From a phage, in the sequence record PZ445521.1: DNA of 64,000 nucleotides. The stretch is one strand, 5' to 3'. The notes beneath the pieces were generated by a model. That model saw only the letters and a list, made by a program, of their open reading frames with translations, was not told the DNA's origin and searched no databases. The position numbers and the translations under genes are program-made. Within the stretch, counting starts at the first letter, position 1; each line of letters starts with the position of its first letter. This document shows, in pieces, positions 3,056 through 63,830 of this stretch.

Positions 3056-3288
3056 AGTACGCCATACACCCTTTGTGCTTCAACTAATCCATCAAAATCC
3101 AATTTGAGATGTGTTATTTGGTCACCATCACCTGGATTCACAATTACTAATACTGAACGAGGAGTTTCGGTAATAACGCGAACCGATGTTTCTGGAAATC
3201 GTTCAGAAACCTTATTTACCAATTCCTGAGCAAATAGTTTAACTTTTTCTTGGAATTCTTTAACAGTAATTGGTTTTTCACTTAGCAT
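3052..3288 (-). CDS. hypothetical protein (cd.2 position)
   Basis: ORF track; 4-nt overlap upstream. Confidence 0.5.
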   Translation of the reverse strand: MLSEKPITVKEFQEKVKLFAQELVNKVSERFPETSVRVITETPRSVLVIVNPGDGDQITHLKLDFDGLVEAQRVYGVL

Positions 3289-3318
3289 TTTGTTTTCCTC
3301 ATTTGTTTCGGTAGAGCT

Positions 3319-3348
3319 ATAATATCACAACTCTACCACAAAGTAAAC
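3319..3348 (-). promoter_or_regulatory. T4-type early promoter (GTTTAC -35, 18-nt spacer, TATTAT -10)
   Basis: Minus strand reads GTTTACtttgtggtagagttgtgaTATTAT in the 64-nt gap upstream of ORF starting at 3288. Confidence 0.55.
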
Positions 3349-3352
3349 TATA

Positions 3353-3628
3353 TTAAATTGCTTTGAATTCTGATGTCTGCGATTCAAAACGAATATCACC
3401 TTTGATGACTAACTCAGCGTCAAGACCGAATACGACAATGATATGCGCGGAACCTGGATACAGCGTAATGGCAATAGAATCCACCTGGTCTGGAAGCAAA
3501 GTGTTCAATACATGAGTCACTTGAGCATGAATTCGAAGCTCGGCTGCGTTATCAAGCTTTTCAAACATATTATTAGCAATAATTTGGCTAAACACTACTT
3601 CTACGATTTTAGAATAAGTCGGAAACAT
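3353..3628 (-). CDS. hypothetical protein (cd.3 position)
   Basis: ORF track. Confidence 0.5.
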   Translation of the reverse strand: MFPTYSKIVEVVFSQIIANNMFEKLDNAAELRIHAQVTHVLNTLLPDQVDSIAITLYPGSAHIIVVFGLDAELVIKGDIRFESQTSEFKAI

Positions 3629-3630
3629 AT

Positions 3631-3831
3631 TTACCTCACATAATTTTCTTCAAGCCAATCAATAACATCTAACGCATTATCAAAAGTTGAACCATCTACT
3701 TTGTCTTCTGTTTCATAATCAAGAACATCTAAGCCTACTCTTCCATTAACAATAGGCCATAAACAAAATAAATATTTCTTTTCTTTTTCAATTTTATCAC
3801 AAAGTTGATAAATCTTTTCTATGTTATTCAT
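3631..3831 (-). CDS. hypothetical protein (cd.4 position)
   Basis: ORF track. Confidence 0.5.
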   Translation of the reverse strand: MNNIEKIYQLCDKIEKEKKYLFCLWPIVNGRVGLDVLDYETEDKVDGSTFDNALDVIDWLEENYVR

Positions 3832-4020
3832 AAGTTTTCCATGGTAAAGGCAGTTTAGTTTTCTTTACTGTTAGTTCAACATCAGGATTCTTTTCTCTTA
3901 ATTTAAGGCATTCCTCCCAAGCTCTGATTTCACTAGTGAATACACAAAATTGCCCATTACTAGTACCAACTAAACCACTATTTACAATAACAATAGACCA
4001 AGTTTCATGATGCCACGCCA

Positions 4021-4021
<1 letters not shown>
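3824..4021 (-). CDS. hypothetical protein (cd.5 position); start trimmed to internal ATG at 4021
   Basis: ORF track 3824..4051; internal Met gives TAATG junction with pseT stop. Confidence 0.45.
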
Positions 4022-5246
<1,225 letters not shown>

Positions 5247-33998: not shown

Positions 33999-35323
33999 TT
34001 GATTTCCTCTAAATCTTTAGTGTATTCTGTAACTACATCAGTAGTTTTCCAATATTCGTTTTCTTCTTTCTTAGCTTTAGCTTCTTCAGCAAGTTTCTTT
34101 GCTTCGTCGGAAGTCATATGAAAAATATTCATTCCGACTAGTTTATCAACATAAGAAGAATACATATCAATTTTAGAAAGTTCTTCGGTCAGTTCTTTGC
34201 GAGTTTTACCCTGTACAACGATTTCACCTGAAATTACTTTCTTAATGAAATGTGCCTTGGCAAAGGCTAAACGAAATGCTGATTCAGTTTCTTTGATTTT
34301 GTTATCAATTCGTTTTTGGACATAAGTTTTACGAACTTCAACGAAGTCTTTGATTAAATCAACTACGTTATCGTAAACTTGTAGCTTTCCTTTCTCATTA
34401 ATAACGGTAATATTTTGGGAACGACGCTCAATCAACCCGAAGTCTTTCATAATTTTCGCGTGACGTTCTTCTTCGTTATCGCTCAAAGCGTATTCTTTGC
34501 GGAATTTAACTTTAAAGCCAAAACCATGCTCACCACAAGCATCATCCCATGTAATGAAGCCTTTATCTTCAAGTGGGTCTAAGATTTTACTCACATAAGT
34601 TTCACGATCATACTTATACGGAATCTCAGTGATGTGCATTTGAGTTCGTGAAGTAAACTTATATGTTCCACGAATTTCATATTGTCCATCAATTTCAACG
34701 ACTTCACCACGAAATTCTGGGAATTCTACCTTCGGTTTAGTTACTTTCTTTCCTTGAAGAGCTTGTAGTACAGCTTTCTTGACAGAAGAAACACTATGAG
34801 GAAGAATGTAAGTTGCATAACCAGTTGCAATACCGGAAACGCCATTAAGAAGAACAGTAGGAATAATAGGCAAATAGAAAGCAGGCGGAATGTGTTCTTT
34901 ATCTTGATGTACCGGAGCATACTCAGTATCTTTATATACACTATAGAAATTTTTACTTACACGAGCAAAAATATAACGACTTGCTGCTGCTTTTTGGACA
35001 GTACGAGAACCAAAGTTTCCTTGACCATCTAACAGAGGAAAGTTATTATTCCAAGTGTTAGCCATCAAAGCACCTGCGTCTTGCGCAGAGTTTTCACCAT
35101 GATGATATCCAAGGTCCGCTACACCACCTGCAATAGAAGCGAGTTTGTGAAACTTATCTTTATTTCCTCGTGCCAAATCAAGAGCTCGAGCAATAACAAA
35201 TCGTTGAACTGGCTTAAATCCATCAATCATATTTGGAATAGCACGATTTTCAACCGTGTACATAGCATAAGCCAATGCTTCATTATCAATGATACTTTTT
35301 AAATCGCGATTATTCAGTTGCAT
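33995..35323 (-). CDS. 52: gp52 DNA topoisomerase II medium subunit
   Basis: 442-aa ORF MQLNNRDLKSIIDNEALAYAMYTVENRAIPNMIDGFKPVQRF.. (GyrA-like). Confidence 0.9.
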   Translation of the reverse strand: MQLNNRDLKSIIDNEALAYAMYTVENRAIPNMIDGFKPVQRFVIARALDLARGNKDKFHKLASIAGGVADLGYHHGENSAQDAGALMANTWNNNFPLLDGQGNFGSRTVQKAAASRYIFARVSKNFYSVYKDTEYAPVHQDKEHIPPAFYLPIIPTVLLNGVSGIATGYATYILPHSVSSVKKAVLQALQGKKVTKPKVEFPEFRGEVVEIDGQYEIRGTYKFTSRTQMHITEIPYKYDRETYVSKILDPLEDKGFITWDDACGEHGFGFKVKFRKEYALSDNEEERHAKIMKDFGLIERRSQNITVINEKGKLQVYDNVVDLIKDFVEVRKTYVQKRIDNKIKETESAFRLAFAKAHFIKKVISGEIVVQGKTRKELTEELSKIDMYSSYVDKLVGMNIFHMTSDEAKKLAEEAKAKKEENEYWKTTDVVTEYTKDLEEIK

Positions 35324-35327
35324 AAAT

Positions 35328-35468
35328 TTACCATACTAGTGAATGTAGTGCCATAATAACATCAGAAATGAAAAGCACGACTTGAATTAATCCGAACATT
35401 ACTCCATAATATAGTGCTACTAATAAAGTAGCAAGGGCTAATGAATAGCCCAAGATTTTCTTAATCAT
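35328..35468 (-). CDS. small hydrophobic protein (46 aa), not in ORF track
   Basis: ATG overlapping ac stop; MIKKILGYSLALATLLVALYYGVMFGLIQVVLFISDVIMALHSLVW; stop 4 nt before gene 52 ATG. Confidence 0.5.
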   Translation of the reverse strand: MIKKILGYSLALATLLVALYYGVMFGLIQVVLFISDVIMALHSLVW

Positions 35469-35619
35469 TAGTAGATAACAACACAAATGTTAAATATGCA
35501 CACATACCCTGAGCTAAAGCTTGCGAAAACACACTGCTGGCATCAATACAGATAGTTAAAACACATGCTACTATCCAACAAATAAATGAAATAACTCCTA
35601 ATAATTTTGCAATATTCAT
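35461..35619 (-). CDS. ac: putative Ac (acridine sensitivity) membrane protein, 52 codons
   Basis: MNIAKLLGVISFICWIVACVLTICIDASSVFSQALAQGMCAYLTFVLLSTND; located between stp and 52 as in T4; RBS GAGGAAAA. Confidence 0.55.
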   Translation of the reverse strand: MNIAKLLGVISFICWIVACVLTICIDASSVFSQALAQGMCAYLTFVLLSTND

Positions 35620-35626
35620 ATTTTCC

Positions 35627-35707
35627 TCACTGGAGTCCGAAGACGCCTTTGGTTTTAAGATTGTTACGATAGAACTGCATCACGTGTTCGTTGTGGAAAT
35701 TACTCAT
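35627..35707 (-). CDS. stp: Stp peptide (26 aa), modulator of host EcoprrI restriction / PrrC anticodon nuclease
   Basis: [26 protein letters not shown] matches T4 Stp as recalled (one difference); ATG overlaps ndd stop. Confidence 0.75.
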
Positions 35708-36165
35708 TAATATGCCTGTAAAACAAATTTAAAGTTATCAGCCAACATACGGTTCATTTCTTCAAGTGTTTGATACTCAGAATGATGATTACGAGTAAAC
35801 GCCAAAGCTAACTGACCTTTACCAAATCCCGTCGTCAGAGGTTTCATCTTAGAAGCAGGCAGATAAAACACTGTGTATGGAACATTGTTATTTGCAATAG
35901 TACGCGCAAGTTGAGACCGGCGTTGACGAATATGACTTAAAACCGCACTGAATCCTTGCTTAGAACGCTGATTACCTACATAAAATCGTGCTGACACACA
36001 TGGATTACTAAATGGACGACCATCTAATTTACTTACTAAAAAGTAAAATCCAGGTTTAGATAAAATGTCTTTATGCGGAGTTCCCAAAAACCATTCACCG
36101 CCCTTGATTGTGCCAATAACAGTAGCGCCTGCATTATTCAGATCAGTAACAGTCATGTATTTCAT
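35707..36165 (-). CDS. ndd: Ndd nucleoid disruption protein
   Basis: 152 codons from [26 protein letters not shown].. with GAGGAAA RBS; track ORF extends 16 codons upstream. Confidence 0.85.
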
Positions 36166-39496: not shown

Positions 39497-41674
39497 TTAG
39501 GCCGCAAGGGCCTTCATAGTTTTAGCGATTTGGGAAACTTCATCATCACTTAAAGAGTTGCGATAACCGATGAAGTCGGAAACAATACGGAATTTCTTGG
39601 TAAACTCAGCAACCATTTTATCACTATTTTTTGAAGCATTACGTGATAATTCATCAAAAAGATTAGTTACCGTCCAGATGTCATGACCGATGGTATCTTT
39701 TCCACCATTAAAATATACACCGCGCAATGAACTAACTATATTAGCGAGTCGTGTATATTCTTCAGAAACTTCATCTGTACTGAAGTACTTCATCATAAAA
39801 TCTAGTTCAGGATGCTTGATAATTTTATCAATATATCGTTGAGCTGAACTTGAATAACCTACATACTTATCATAATCTACATCATCAAAAGCATCTACAT
39901 ATAAATCACGCAAAGCTTCAAAAATACATTGGCACTGACCAAGCTCTTTTACCTTTTTCTGCAAAAGCGGACGAATAACATAAAATTCATTAATGCCAAT
40001 AAGATTAGCCATACGAATCAAAATATTCATAGATGGATGACAAAGCGATGTAGTACCATCCATAGAGAAAATATCAGAACGATGCATATACGCTACATAA
40101 CCAGTAATTTCATCTGCTTCTGACGTAAGTGTAAATAGTTCCTCTTTTTCCCAGCGCCCGTCTTTAATTTCAAACTTAAATGCTGTAGCAGCTTTAGGAC
40201 GAGGAGCTTTACTTTTAACTACCTTTGGAATATAACTTTTTACTAAAGCTTCAATTTCTGACAAATAGTGAATGTTAACTTCATCACTTTCAAACATCGC
40301 CATAATATCAGGGAGTAAATCAATCTGCGATTCTACTTCCGGATTAATAAACAGAAGACGCTCATTGTGATGAATATTTAAAGTGTTATTAAATTCACTA
40401 TCATCTAACGCATGTGCTAATCCACGGACAATATTAACACGATTTTTAATATTATCAATAACGATATTAATTTTTGTTGTATTAATACCAAACAGACGAT
40501 AACTTGATGCAACGGCTGAAGTTTCATGACTTTGCTTAATACGCTTCAGTCGAGGGTCAAGATTTACTTCATACACAACCCCTGCATTGCATAGCTTACT
40601 GTCAGGTTCAAACATGCTCTGCATTTTCTTATATGACAGATTTTTAGTCGTGAATTTGACTGAATTACTAATCATATAATCTCGAGCAGAATACCCCATC
40701 TTCATCAATTCACGATATGTATGACGAGGAGATGTAGATTCTTTAAATCGTTTTACATCTTCATTAAATGCTTTCTCACTGAGTTCTTTAACTCGTTCAA
40801 TAATATTTTTACGAGTACGATCATCAAGTGAAAGAGCCTCACGAGATGGAGCAATATCCAGTGAACCCATTGGAAACTTAATGTAATTCACTTCATTGCG
40901 AATGCTTAGCCAGTTACGGTCTCTAATAACACCATCGATAGGATAAACGATACCGCCGTAGATAGCATATAATCCACCACGATCTGGCCAGTATCTTTCT
41001 GGATTTACACCGTAATAATCATCAAAATCCGGAAAATAATCAATTTCGCGGTCAAGACCATTAATGATAGCCAAATCTTTGAATGGTCGCATGATATAAG
41101 AAACTTCATAAGCAAAGTTTCTAAAGTCTTTTTCTTCAACTGGAACTACGATTTCAATACCAGTTTTATCATCTGGACCCATTTCTTTTACGAATGTAGG
41201 TTTAATTTGTGGACCATCGCCATCCATGTAAGCTACATAACCACGAATTTCACCTTTATGATACGAAGTAATACTAAATGTATCAGTATAACTAAACGGA
41301 GATTTAGAACCTAAACCAAATCCGCCAATGAAATCGTTAGATTCAGCCTTAGATGAACTGAAGTATGAATTATACAAACCAGGAGAATTATCATCACCTT
41401 GAATATCAAAATCACTCATACCCGGACCAAAATCTCGACAAACAAATCGTGGGTCTAAACGTCCAGGAACTTGTATGATAAATTTTTCAGGATTTCCATT
41501 AAGTGCATGGGCATCAATCATGTTAGTAATCAATTCACGGACTACTGCGCGAATCTTGTTTGTATACAAATCAGATGACAGAATTTTAAATACTTTAGGA
41601 TTTGCTGCGATGCTAAATGCTTTTGATTTAGAACCATTACCAAGAATTGTTTCTTTTTCAGTGGTGATAATCAT
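39497..41674 (-). CDS. rIIA: rIIA protein (GHKL ATPase-like)
   Basis: 725-aa ORF. Confidence 0.9.
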
Positions 41675-60249: not shown

Positions 60250-60612
60250 TTAAAAGAATTTAAACTTTTTCTTTGACCTTTTATTAAATGCATCTTGTAG
60301 TTGCATTGTAATACATTTTTCTACATGAGGAGCTAACTCAGCTTTTCTTTCTTGGTCAAGAACAGCAAAGTCCATTACAACCTTTCCATCAACCCAATCC
60401 AGTTTTGTTACATACACTATATGTGTAGAACCATCTTCTAGTTTAATGACAATCTCCTGGATAACATTTTCCATGGCAGATTTAATTATCTTAAGAGACT
60501 CATTAAAAAGACGTTCTTTTCTTTCTTCTTCCCCCTCCGAAGAGGGGGATTCATCGATAATTTCTAGATCTAAATCTAAATCATCTTTATTCATTAAATT
60601 CTTCCATATCAC
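60250..60612 (-). CDS. 40: gp40 head vertex assembly chaperone (alternative start at 60594)
   Basis: 120-aa ORF between 41 and uvsX as in T4. Confidence 0.7.
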   Translation of the reverse strand: MIWKNLMNKDDLDLDLEIIDESPSSEGEEERKERLFNESLKIIKSAMENVIQEIVIKLEDGSTHIVYVTKLDWVDGKVVMDFAVLDQERKAELAPHVEKCITMQLQDAFNKRSKKKFKFF

Positions 60613-61768
60613 TTAACTGTTCGAGGTCAGTTTCTAAATCAGCTGCTGATTTACTTTTACTTTCTGGAGATTTAAATTTTTCAACCTTTGAGTTAATCAA
60701 TTCATCAACTTCAGCTTCAACAATTTCATTACTATCAATAGCACCTAACTGATAAGCACGTTTAATAGCATCTCGGAATGGTTGATGCTTAAATAAAGGA
60801 CCCCAGAATGTAGTGCAGTTGGTATCTTTTGCACGCCAAGATTTTTCTTCGCGAATCATCTCGCCGGTTTCTTCATCAAGAAATTCACGAGCATACCAGC
60901 CATTTTTAGGTTTTACCACGAATCCTAATTCTAGAGCCATATCTAACAATCCAGAATAAGGATCGATACCACCGTCAAATTTAACATCAATAAAGAATTT
61001 ACTTTTTTCTTTAACGGTACGAGATTTTTCTACATTTAGAACAAATTGATACCCCTGAAGATCAGAACCATCTTTAATCTGACGCTTACCGATAATGAAT
61101 ACGGTATCAGCCGAATACATTACGCCTGTACCACCTGTCATCACGGTTTTACTAAACATTTCAATTGTTTCAATTGTATGATTAACCGCAACACATGGAA
61201 TATTTTTAATGCTAAAGTAAGGAGTAACAATACGGAATAATGACTTCAGTGATTTAGCACGAGTCATATCTGCCACAGATTTTTCATTCAAGGCATCTTC
61301 CGTTTCTTTCTTAGAAGCCATATTACCGATTGAGTCGATGAATACAATAACTTTTTCACCGCGCTCAATAGCTTCAAGCTGATTCACCATATCAATTTTC
61401 AGCTGTTCAACTGACTGGATTGGCGTATGAATTACTCGTTCCGGGTCAACTCCCATGGATCGTAAATAAGCTGGAGTAATACCAAATTCACTATCATAGA
61501 ATAGACAAACCGCGTCAGGATATTTGTTCAAATATGCCGCAACCATAGTCAAAGACATATTTGATTTAAAGTGTTTAGAAGGCCCTGCGAAAATAGTTAA
61601 ACCAGACTGCATACCGCCATCAATCGCGCCAGAAATAGCAATATTAAGCATTGGGATTTTTGTACGGATTACATCCTTTTCATTAAAGAATTTAGATGTA
61701 GTCAGTTCAGCAGTCATTTTAGAAGTGGAAGCTTTAATCAAACGGGATTTTAAATCTGCAATAGACAT
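60587..61768 (-). CDS. uvsX: UvsX recombinase (RecA-like)
   Basis: 393-aa ORF MSIADLKSRLIKASTSKMTAELTTSKFFNEKDVIRTKIPMLNIA.. matches T4 UvsX. Confidence 0.9.
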   Translation of the reverse strand: MSIADLKSRLIKASTSKMTAELTTSKFFNEKDVIRTKIPMLNIAISGAIDGGMQSGLTIFAGPSKHFKSNMSLTMVAAYLNKYPDAVCLFYDSEFGITPAYLRSMGVDPERVIHTPIQSVEQLKIDMVNQLEAIERGEKVIVFIDSIGNMASKKETEDALNEKSVADMTRAKSLKSLFRIVTPYFSIKNIPCVAVNHTIETIEMFSKTVMTGGTGVMYSADTVFIIGKRQIKDGSDLQGYQFVLNVEKSRTVKEKSKFFIDVKFDGGIDPYSGLLDMALELGFVVKPKNGWYAREFLDEETGEMIREEKSWRAKDTNCTTFWGPLFKHQPFRDAIKRAYQLGAIDSNEIVEAEVDELINSKVEKFKSPESKSKSAADLETDLEQLSDMEEFNE

Positions 61769-61845
61769 TCATTTTTTCCATAGGCATCATTATATTTTCC
61801 TCACTGGTTAAAGATAGAGTAATTATAACACAATAAATTTAGGCA

Positions 61846-62694
61846 TTAATCAACTGCTATTGGATGAATAGCATTAAACTTATGAAATGCTTCTGATTTT
61901 TCTTTACGTGAAACACACATGCGAAGAACCTTTAATGGCTCGTCTTCTTCACCCAACGATTTTCGTTTTTCAATATTCGATGTTTTCCAACGAGCTTGCT
62001 CTGGAAACTCTCTATTGATTTGCTCAAGCGCTCTATTATGTTTAGAATTACTACGAATTGAACTGCACCCGCCAGGAGCTTGTGCTTTTCCAGATACAAC
62101 CAGATATTTGAACAAGGCCAAATGCGGATAACCTTGATTAATTAAATTGAGAAATGCATACATATCTTCGCACAAATCAATTTTTCCATACCCAATTTGT
62201 TCTGTCGTAAGTTTTCCAAGGTCATACCATGTATTCGTGAATCCATATGAATTTTCACGATAATTACCCCAAGATGAAGTAATTTTAAAAATTGGTAGAC
62301 GAGCATGGCCATGATAATACCCGCAATCCATGGCATCTTCGACGTATTGAATCAATTCATAGAACTGTTCACGGGTTAATTGATTGACTTTATCTACACA
62401 ACGACGGTCATCTCTTTTTCGCATTGAACTCATACGAATAGTAGTATCATCGTCAATCATCCAGATTCGTTGACCTGCATACATATCAGTAATTGCTTTA
62501 CGAGTACCAGCAATTCCATTTACATCGTCAGGAATAGTTATAATTTTAGCTCTAGACCCATAGGCATCATAATAAGCTTTTTCTTCATGTTCACGCACTA
62601 CAATATGGGGTTCATAATTAGTCGGAAACATATCAAGGGCAGAAACTGCCCCGACACGCTGATAACTTGGAATTACGAATTGAATCATTTCCAC
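61846..62694 (-). CDS. putative glycosyltransferase with DxD motif in the beta-gt locus (not T4 beta-gt)
   Basis: 282-aa ORF with WMIDDDTT; sits between uvsX and 42. Confidence 0.5.
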   Translation of the reverse strand: MEMIQFVIPSYQRVGAVSALDMFPTNYEPHIVVREHEEKAYYDAYGSRAKIITIPDDVNGIAGTRKAITDMYAGQRIWMIDDDTTIRMSSMRKRDDRRCVDKVNQLTREQFYELIQYVEDAMDCGYYHGHARLPIFKITSSWGNYRENSYGFTNTWYDLGKLTTEQIGYGKIDLCEDMYAFLNLINQGYPHLALFKYLVVSGKAQAPGGCSSIRSNSKHNRALEQINREFPEQARWKTSNIEKRKSLGEEDEPLKVLRMCVSRKEKSEAFHKFNAIHPIAVD

Positions 62695-63425
62695 TCACCT
62701 TTATAGTCTTTTTTCACAATATGAGTTTCGCCAGTATTCCACCAATGATCAACCAAGTAAAAATGACGAGAATATACATGAAGACTTCCAACATTCCATA
62801 TAATAGAACCTGCTTTATACTGACGAGTTGAATCGCCTGCATTCAAATCAGATACTAATTTATCTAATACGTATTTTTGCCATGCATAATCATTACGGAA
62901 TCCGAAGACCACGTCATTTGAGCGCATGCTTACTACTGCATTGACTTTCTTATCACGAATCAGGTACTGTACTGTATTAGTACACATGAAATCTGACATA
63001 CCATCTTTATTGTAGTCAAATTGCATGGATGGACGAGTATAAATCATGATACCACGCCGAGAATCAGGATTTTGACCAAGTTCAGCTAAACACATATCAT
63101 ACTGGGCATAGTTATCTTCTGACCAAATAGCCCAACCATAATTCGAGTTAATTTCGCCTTTAGAAGATGCTACCTGCTGCCAAATCTTTGGTGTTTCACC
63201 TGGAATATCTTTAACAAACAAGCTCTTAGATTTATACCATTCAAGTTCGCGCTGAATGTATTCATCATTAAGAGCACCAAAAATAAACGGTTCATCTGCT
63301 ACAAATGATGCGCCAATAATTTCAATAGTTTTAACACCAGTTTTATCAACTACGAAATCTTTTTCTTTTAATGCAAGCCCCAAATGAAGACGGATTTCTT
63401 CAACTGTCATAGAGTCACTAATCAT
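62685..63425 (-). CDS. 42: dCMP hydroxymethylase
   Basis: 246-aa thymidylate-synthase-fold ORF. Confidence 0.85.
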   Translation of the reverse strand: MISDSMTVEEIRLHLGLALKEKDFVVDKTGVKTIEIIGASFVADEPFIFGALNDEYIQRELEWYKSKSLFVKDIPGETPKIWQQVASSKGEINSNYGWAIWSEDNYAQYDMCLAELGQNPDSRRGIMIYTRPSMQFDYNKDGMSDFMCTNTVQYLIRDKKVNAVVSMRSNDVVFGFRNDYAWQKYVLDKLVSDLNAGDSTRQYKAGSIIWNVGSLHVYSRHFYLVDHWWNTGETHIVKKDYKGEWK

Positions 63426-63432
63426 TTAAACC

Positions 63433-63582
63433 TCAATTGATACATTCATATTTAACTTGTAACAGTAATAAACCCCAACCTAAAATAATAGTTGGAATCA
63501 TAAGAGGAACCGTTACACTATAGTATATACTTATTATAATCATCAAGATTAAAAGCAACACTGTTATAATTTTGCTTTTCAT
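63433..63582 (-). CDS. small membrane protein (49 aa), not in ORF track (imm.1 position)
   Basis: MKSKIITVLLLILMIIISIYYSVTVPLMIPTIILGWGLLLLQVKYECIN; ATGA overlap with imm stop. Confidence 0.45.
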   Translation of the reverse strand: MKSKIITVLLLILMIIISIYYSVTVPLMIPTIILGWGLLLLQVKYECIN

Positions 63583-63830
63583 TCCTTATCTCTGATGATA
63601 ATTACCTGATTTGGTTGTGCAGACTTTTTAGTTTCACCCGCAATTGACCAAATAAATGTAATAAACCAACCAATAATTGACCAGTTAAACAGTAAAGATG
63701 TGAAAAAGATTCCTACTGTCGATTTTGACCCACGCATCAAAGCAATAAACCATGGAAGCATGTATATAATAATAGCCAACACACCTGAAACTAAAACCAT
63801 AAAAATTGAACCTGCTACTAAAGTTTCCAT
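63579..63830 (-). CDS. imm: Imm superinfection immunity membrane protein
   Basis: 83-aa two-TM ORF. Confidence 0.8.
   Translation of the reverse strand: METLVAGSIFMVLVSGVLAIIIYMLPWFIALMRGSKSTVGIFFTSLLFNWSIIGWFITFIWSIAGETKKSAQPNQVIIIRDKE

Follow-up and report, generated by a model that had tools for sequence, protein, structure and literature searches.

A T2/T6-type beta-glucosyl-HMC-alpha-glucosyltransferase gene at the T4 beta-gt locus of phage record PZ445521.1

Results

Identity of the gene between uvsX and gene 42

[quoted passage not shown] We regard this as the best explanation. Locus, gene identity, protein family, fold and motif conservation were established here; statements on the product, genetics and defence effects are drawn from the literature, and the residue roles and the modification ratio of this phage are predictions. 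The gene itself is not new: Winkler and Rueger are said to have described the original cloning of the T2 and T6 glucosyltransferase genes in 1993. The coding sequence and its neighbors are as follows.

61846–62688, minus strand: ba-gt (ggt), 280 aa plus stop; beta-glucosyl-HMC-alpha-glucosyltransferase, Pfam TAGT, GT-A fold
60587–61768, minus strand: uvsX, RecA-like recombinase, 393 aa; downstream neighbor of ba-gt
62685–63425, minus strand: gene 42, dCMP hydroxymethylase, 246 aa, which makes the hmC precursor; upstream neighbor of ba-gt

The original prediction had placed a glycosyltransferase other than T4 beta-gt at this locus and had called for a homology search against the T2/T6 and T4 enzymes. 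That search supports the prediction on both sides. The window protein is 99% identical over 280 aa to ggt of T2 in both T2 records (three residues differ) and 98–99% identical over 280 aa to T6 ggt, with four substitutions and, in either T6 record, a further lesion. It matches PHROG 842 (phrog_842, 'beta-glucosyl-HMC-alpha-glucosyltransferase') with E = 2.4e-89 and Pfam PF20691 (TAGT, TET-associated glycosyltransferase) with E = 1.7e-9, its 38.4 bits exceeding the gathering score of 27.5. The latter match spans residues 6–209, or profile positions 3–205 of 205, and TAGT was the sole Pfam match to the protein at E <= 1. In contrast, BLASTP against T4 beta-gt revealed no similarity (best E = 2.2), which rules out homology to that enzyme and agrees with the earlier impression that the two do not resemble each other. 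T4 b-gt belongs to Pfam PF09198 and has a GT-B fold (PDB 1JG7). When T4 beta-gt and the alpha-gt of Shigella phage JK38 were searched against the whole window by tblastn, only chance-level matches were returned, and the window encodes no other hmC glucosyltransferase.

Closely related genomes carry the same gene. In a search with a 25-kb query, window positions 39497–64000 were 100% identical to positions 1–24504 of JK38 (MK962755.1), which makes the window in effect a circularly permuted version of JK38 (species Tequatrovirus zeezee23). The JK38 protein QEG05891.1, annotated as beta-glucosyl-HMC-alpha-glucosyl-transferase, is identical to the window protein. A 1201-nt stretch covering the gene (61700–62900) is likewise 100% identical by megablast in JK38 and in Escherichia phage QOTSP. 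The protein of phage NR1 is also identical, and that of TB37 differs by N24D only.

Translation start and gene neighborhood

The initial ORF list gave a 282-aa frame at 61846–62694 on the minus strand, counted from the first in-frame GTG. The reading frame is real, yet its length needs correction: translation almost certainly begins two codons further on, with the ATG at 62688, affording a protein of 280 aa. Three observations favor this ATG, and the GTG at 62694 was dropped on their account: the ATG (62686–62688) overlaps the gene 42 stop codon TGA (62685–62687) as ATGA; a Shine-Dalgarno-like GGTGAG at 62694–62699 precedes it with a 5-nt spacer; and the annotations of JK38, T2, BGP, TB37 and NR1 all use this start. 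The ATGA overlap further suggests that translation of ba-gt is coupled to that of gene 42.

62685–62699, minus strand: ba-gt translation start region, read from the sequence

The flanking frames confirm that the gene occupies the place held by beta-gt in T4, and the claim that T2 and T6 carry their second-glucose enzyme at the equivalent position was also correct: in both phages ba-gt lies between uvsX and gene 42, separated from uvsX by a 77-bp spacer only. The window has the same 77-bp spacer (61769–61845) and, like T2 and T6, lacks segA here. T4 differs from the window phage, T2 and T6 in having segA and the 351-aa b-gt at this locus instead of ba-gt. In T4, segA is a GIY-YIG homing endonuclease gene that lies between uvsX and b-gt (T4 locus excerpt 3571–4236). 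Both gene replacement and insertion of a homing endonuclease have thus taken place at the uvsX–gene 42 locus.

Two further features of the neighborhood were observed. A 49-aa, strongly hydrophobic ORF (MKSKIITVLLLILMIIISIYY...) occupies 63433–63582 on the minus strand, in the gap that separates gene 42 from imm; the JK38 record lists it as a hypothetical protein, and the interval of about 150 bp is unannotated in the T4, T2 and T6 records compared. Inside codons 13–18 of ba-gt, at 62636–62652 on the minus strand, a GC-rich hairpin (GGGGCAGTTTCTGCCCT) is followed by a T-rich tract and is conserved in T2 and T6. It is the lone terminator-like site in a scan of 61500–63600, where 1.2 would be expected from shuffled sequence, and because the count is no higher than in the shuffles the hairpin may be chance rather than a feature. 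Promoter-like sites in the same interval were likewise not in excess (12 versus 10.0 expected from shuffled sequence).

Conserved motifs and predicted fold

A search of 5.8 billion proteins recovered 11 relatives with identities down to 29%, all of them phage-like TAGT proteins and most unnamed; PF20691 is also present in nine of the 11. The residues invariant in the resulting alignment, whose homologues reach down to 32% identity, include I6, P7, S8, Y9, R11, D79, D80, D81, D175 and G206/G207, and several of these fall into three short motifs.

62656–62673, minus strand: IPSYQR, residues 6–11, after strand beta-1; I6, P7, S8, Y9 and R11 invariant
62446–62454, minus strand: DDD (D79–D81), the DxD motif, codons gac-gat-gat; invariant
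62164–62169, minus strand: E174–D175 ('CED'), at the N-terminus of model helix 174–184; D175 invariant, E174 nearly so

An AlphaFold2 model built on the homologue alignment (mean pLDDT 70.5, pTM 0.73) matches GT-A, GT2-like glycosyltransferases and contains a single Rossmann-like alpha/beta/alpha nucleotide-sugar-binding domain. Consistent with this assignment, the T6 TAGT has been described as a GT-A enzyme, sister to GT2 (PMC13216743). With its GT-A fold, ba-gt has no relationship to alpha-gt and beta-gt of T4, both of which are GT-B enzymes. The N-terminal 120 residues of the model are confident, while the loops at 125–151 and 194–211 are poor (pLDDT < 50). By analogy with GT2-type enzymes, IPSYQR, which follows a strand modeled at residues 3–7 (pLDDT of about 85), is probably the UDP-binding loop. 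The WMIDDD motif noted at the outset withstood comparison with the homologues, since its three aspartates are invariant, and the model places them directly after strand 74–77 (pLDDT of about 87), the canonical position of a DxD motif, where they would bind the divalent cation together with the diphosphate of UDP. E174–D175 may supply the catalytic base, much as the ED/TED motif does in inverting GT2 enzymes. Because the two loops are modeled with low confidence and the family has no experimental structure (a sequence search of the PDB returned no chain matching the window protein), these residue roles are putative.

Could the DDD motif be coincidental, in a protein that is not a glycosyltransferase at all? 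The near-identity to the T2 and T6 enzymes, the TAGT and PHROG 842 matches, the GT-A model and the conservation of the motifs together exclude this reading.

Predicted pathway and DNA modification

As a T2/T6-type ba-gt, the window enzyme would act last in the three-step pathway established for T2 and T6. Gene 42 would supply hm-dCMP, so that replication places 5-hydroxymethylcytosine in the DNA; the phage alpha-glucosyltransferase would add an alpha-linked glucose to hmC; and ba-gt would then attach another glucose, donated by UDP-glucose, in beta linkage to the 6-OH of the first, yielding gentiobiosyl-hmC. The chemistry is expected to be that of an inverting, metal-dependent GT-A enzyme, with UDP-glucose and the divalent cation bound by the IPSYxR loop and D79–D81 and with E174/D175 as the likely base. 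The alpha-gt of JK38 lies at 34830–36032, about 10 kb past the point corresponding to the window end, and JK38 has no beta-gt; a partner alpha-gt is probably present in this phage too, given 100% identity to JK38 over 24.5 kb.

Published HPLC/MS analyses of virion nucleosides bear directly on the product and in effect supply the mass-spectrometric check that the original prediction had called for. In seven Durham phages (Solly, TB37, QOTSP, NR1, CP, Some and EH2), 5-hmdC makes up about one-third and alpha-gentiobiosyl-hmdC about two-thirds, with background alpha-glucosyl-hmdC and no beta-glucosyl-hmdC, and the authors credited the second glucose to a TAGT gene syntenic with T4 b-gt (PMC13390438). 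Because the window protein is identical to that of NR1 and the gene to that of QOTSP, T6-like virion DNA is expected here: about two-thirds gentiobiosyl-hmC and one-third unglucosylated hmC, with scant mono-alpha-glucosyl-hmC and no beta-glucosyl-hmC. These proportions are carried over from NR1 and QOTSP, as sequence alone gives no mono- to di-glucosyl ratio: T2, only three substitutions away, has no more than about 5% gentiobiosyl-hmC. Through the same literature (PMC13390438), the original prediction of an hmC glucosylation pattern different from that of T4 is upheld.

A TAGT-family enzyme might instead glycosylate hmC directly, use another sugar donor or accept beta-glucosyl-hmC. The family does offer grounds for asking, as its members are diverse and occur with an alpha-GT, with a beta-GT or alone (PMC13216743), and a beta-gt homologue lies beside a ba-gt homologue in Citrobacter phage Moon and in Enterobacter and Cronobacter phages. 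Nonetheless, 98–99% full-length identity to the T2 and T6 enzymes, identity to the protein of NR1, whose DNA holds alpha-gentiobiosyl-hmdC, and the possession of alpha-gt but not beta-gt by the identical genome of JK38 leave such a specificity highly improbable for the window enzyme. Elsewhere in the family, a homologue of T4 b-gt (about 49% identity) adjoins an annotated ba-gt in Moon (NC_027331), vB_VIPECLUMC02 and Pet-CM3-4, suggesting beta-glucosyl-hmC as the acceptor of some TAGTs, a possibility also raised in PMC13216743.

Allelic variation and the T2 and T6 records

We compared the ba-gt alleles residue by residue. Relative to the window protein, two independent T2 records carry R11H, N24D and P251S, and T6 carries N24D, Y40N, D55G and R106H. 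The T2 records are AP018813 (locus excerpt 3283–4125) and MH751506 (3286–4128), and R11H and P251S set both apart from the NR1 and TB37 proteins as well; codon 11 corresponds to window positions 62656–62658. In the TAGT alignment R11, which lies in the putative UDP-binding loop IPSYxR, is otherwise invariant, and P251 is nearly so. According to figures from Lehman and Pratt (1960), as relayed by a citing paper, T2 has about 5% of its hmC in the gentiobiosyl form and T6 about 72%, while about 25% is bare. R11H could be a candidate cause of the low diglucosylation in T2. In that case R11H, alone or together with P251S, would account for the long-known gap in diglucosylation between T2 and T6, and the window allele would serve as a 'high-activity' reference.

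The T6 records hold lesions of their own. In MH550421 (locus excerpt 3138–3980), codon 10 of ba-gt is changed from CAG to the amber codon TAG, and the gene is annotated as 261 aa starting from M20. AP018814 (locus excerpt 2135–2974) has instead lost 3 nt from GATGATGAT, so that only DD is left of the invariant DDD. These lesions are either laboratory-stock changes or sequencing errors, and the window gene has neither.

Such records, together with the low gentiobiosyl-hmC content of T2 despite its having the same gene, raise the alternative that the window gene is present but inactive or weak, like a T2-type hypomorph, leaving the DNA mostly mono-alpha-glucosylated. We give this very little credence: the window protein keeps R11, P251 and an intact DDD and has no premature stop, and the identical NR1 protein and QOTSP gene go with about two-thirds gentiobiosyl-hmdC. 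An active T2/T6-type enzyme thus remains the preferred reading. More broadly, the window/NR1 protein (with its identical QOTSP gene) and the TB37 protein, which carries N24D only, both accompany about two-thirds gentiobiosyl-hmC, and BGP, with eight substitutions, has a 1:2:2 modification pattern. The tentative idea that natural ba-gt alleles determine the balance between mono- and di-glucosylated hmC is one that we consider rather unlikely.

Distribution and annotation

Megablast of 61700–62900 against 50,697 phage records matched 640, of which 475 aligned over at least 80% of the query; the commonest annotations among the matches were beta-glucosyl-HMC-alpha-glucosyl-transferase, beta-alpha-glucosyltransferase and glucosyl transferase. 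With the 280-aa protein as query, tblastn matched 689 phage records, of which 472 reach at least 95% identity, versus 126 records for T4 b-gt, of which only 29 reach at least 90%. Since some 470 records carry this allele (at least 95%) against about 29 with a T4-type beta-gt (at least 90%), most phages of the genus have ba-gt at this locus (see also PMC13216743), and T4 is the exception.

The two unrelated enzymes, b-gt and ba-gt, are mixed up in some database annotations. In Enterobacteria phage RB55 (KM607002), the gene labelled 'b-gt: beta-glucosyl-HMC-alpha-glucosyl-transferase' is in fact 100% identical to T4 b-gt.

Discussion

Which host defences can see the phage DNA depends on how its hmC is glucosylated, and studies of T6 show what the second glucose contributes. 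Deletion of ba-gt from T6 leaves only alpha-glucosyl-hmC, with gentiobiosyl-hmC lost; the Brig1 glycosylase degrades DNA of this mutant but not wild-type T6 DNA, and the mutant is more sensitive to Brig1 (PMC11078745). DNA of T6 lacking g-gt also becomes a substrate of BapA (bioRxiv 10.64898/2026.02.25.707755). Gentiobiosyl-hmC resists Brig1 in vitro as well as BapA, yet is a target of GmrSD-type type IV enzymes (PMC11078745; bioRxiv 10.64898/2026.02.25.707755; PMC13216743).

Cloned from T2 and T6 decades ago and annotated in hundreds of genomes, ba-gt is a known feature, and its biology is unchanged by the present analysis. The practical value lies in the annotation and in the prediction of T6-like DNA, mostly gentiobiosyl-hmC and devoid of beta-glucosyl-hmC.

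Overall, the window gene most closely resembles ba-gt of T2 and T6, with which it shares the length of 280 aa, the locus, the ATGA overlap with gene 42, the DDD motif and, as far as JK38 indicates, an alpha-gt partner in the genome. T4 b-gt is alike in its syntenic locus, its use of UDP-glucose and the beta linkage formed on modified phage DNA, but has a GT-B rather than a GT-A fold (our model; PMC13216743), and its acceptor is hmC itself, whereas enzymes of the window type act on the glucose of alpha-glucosyl-hmC. Among inverting GT-A/GT2 enzymes, SpsA, TarP, TarS and the BcsA catalytic domain share only 8–18% sequence identity with the window protein and have no clear counterpart of its C-terminal 70 residues. 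The acceptors of GT-A/GT2 enzymes are polysaccharide, lipid or teichoic acid, in contrast to the sugar on duplex DNA that is the acceptor of ba-gt.
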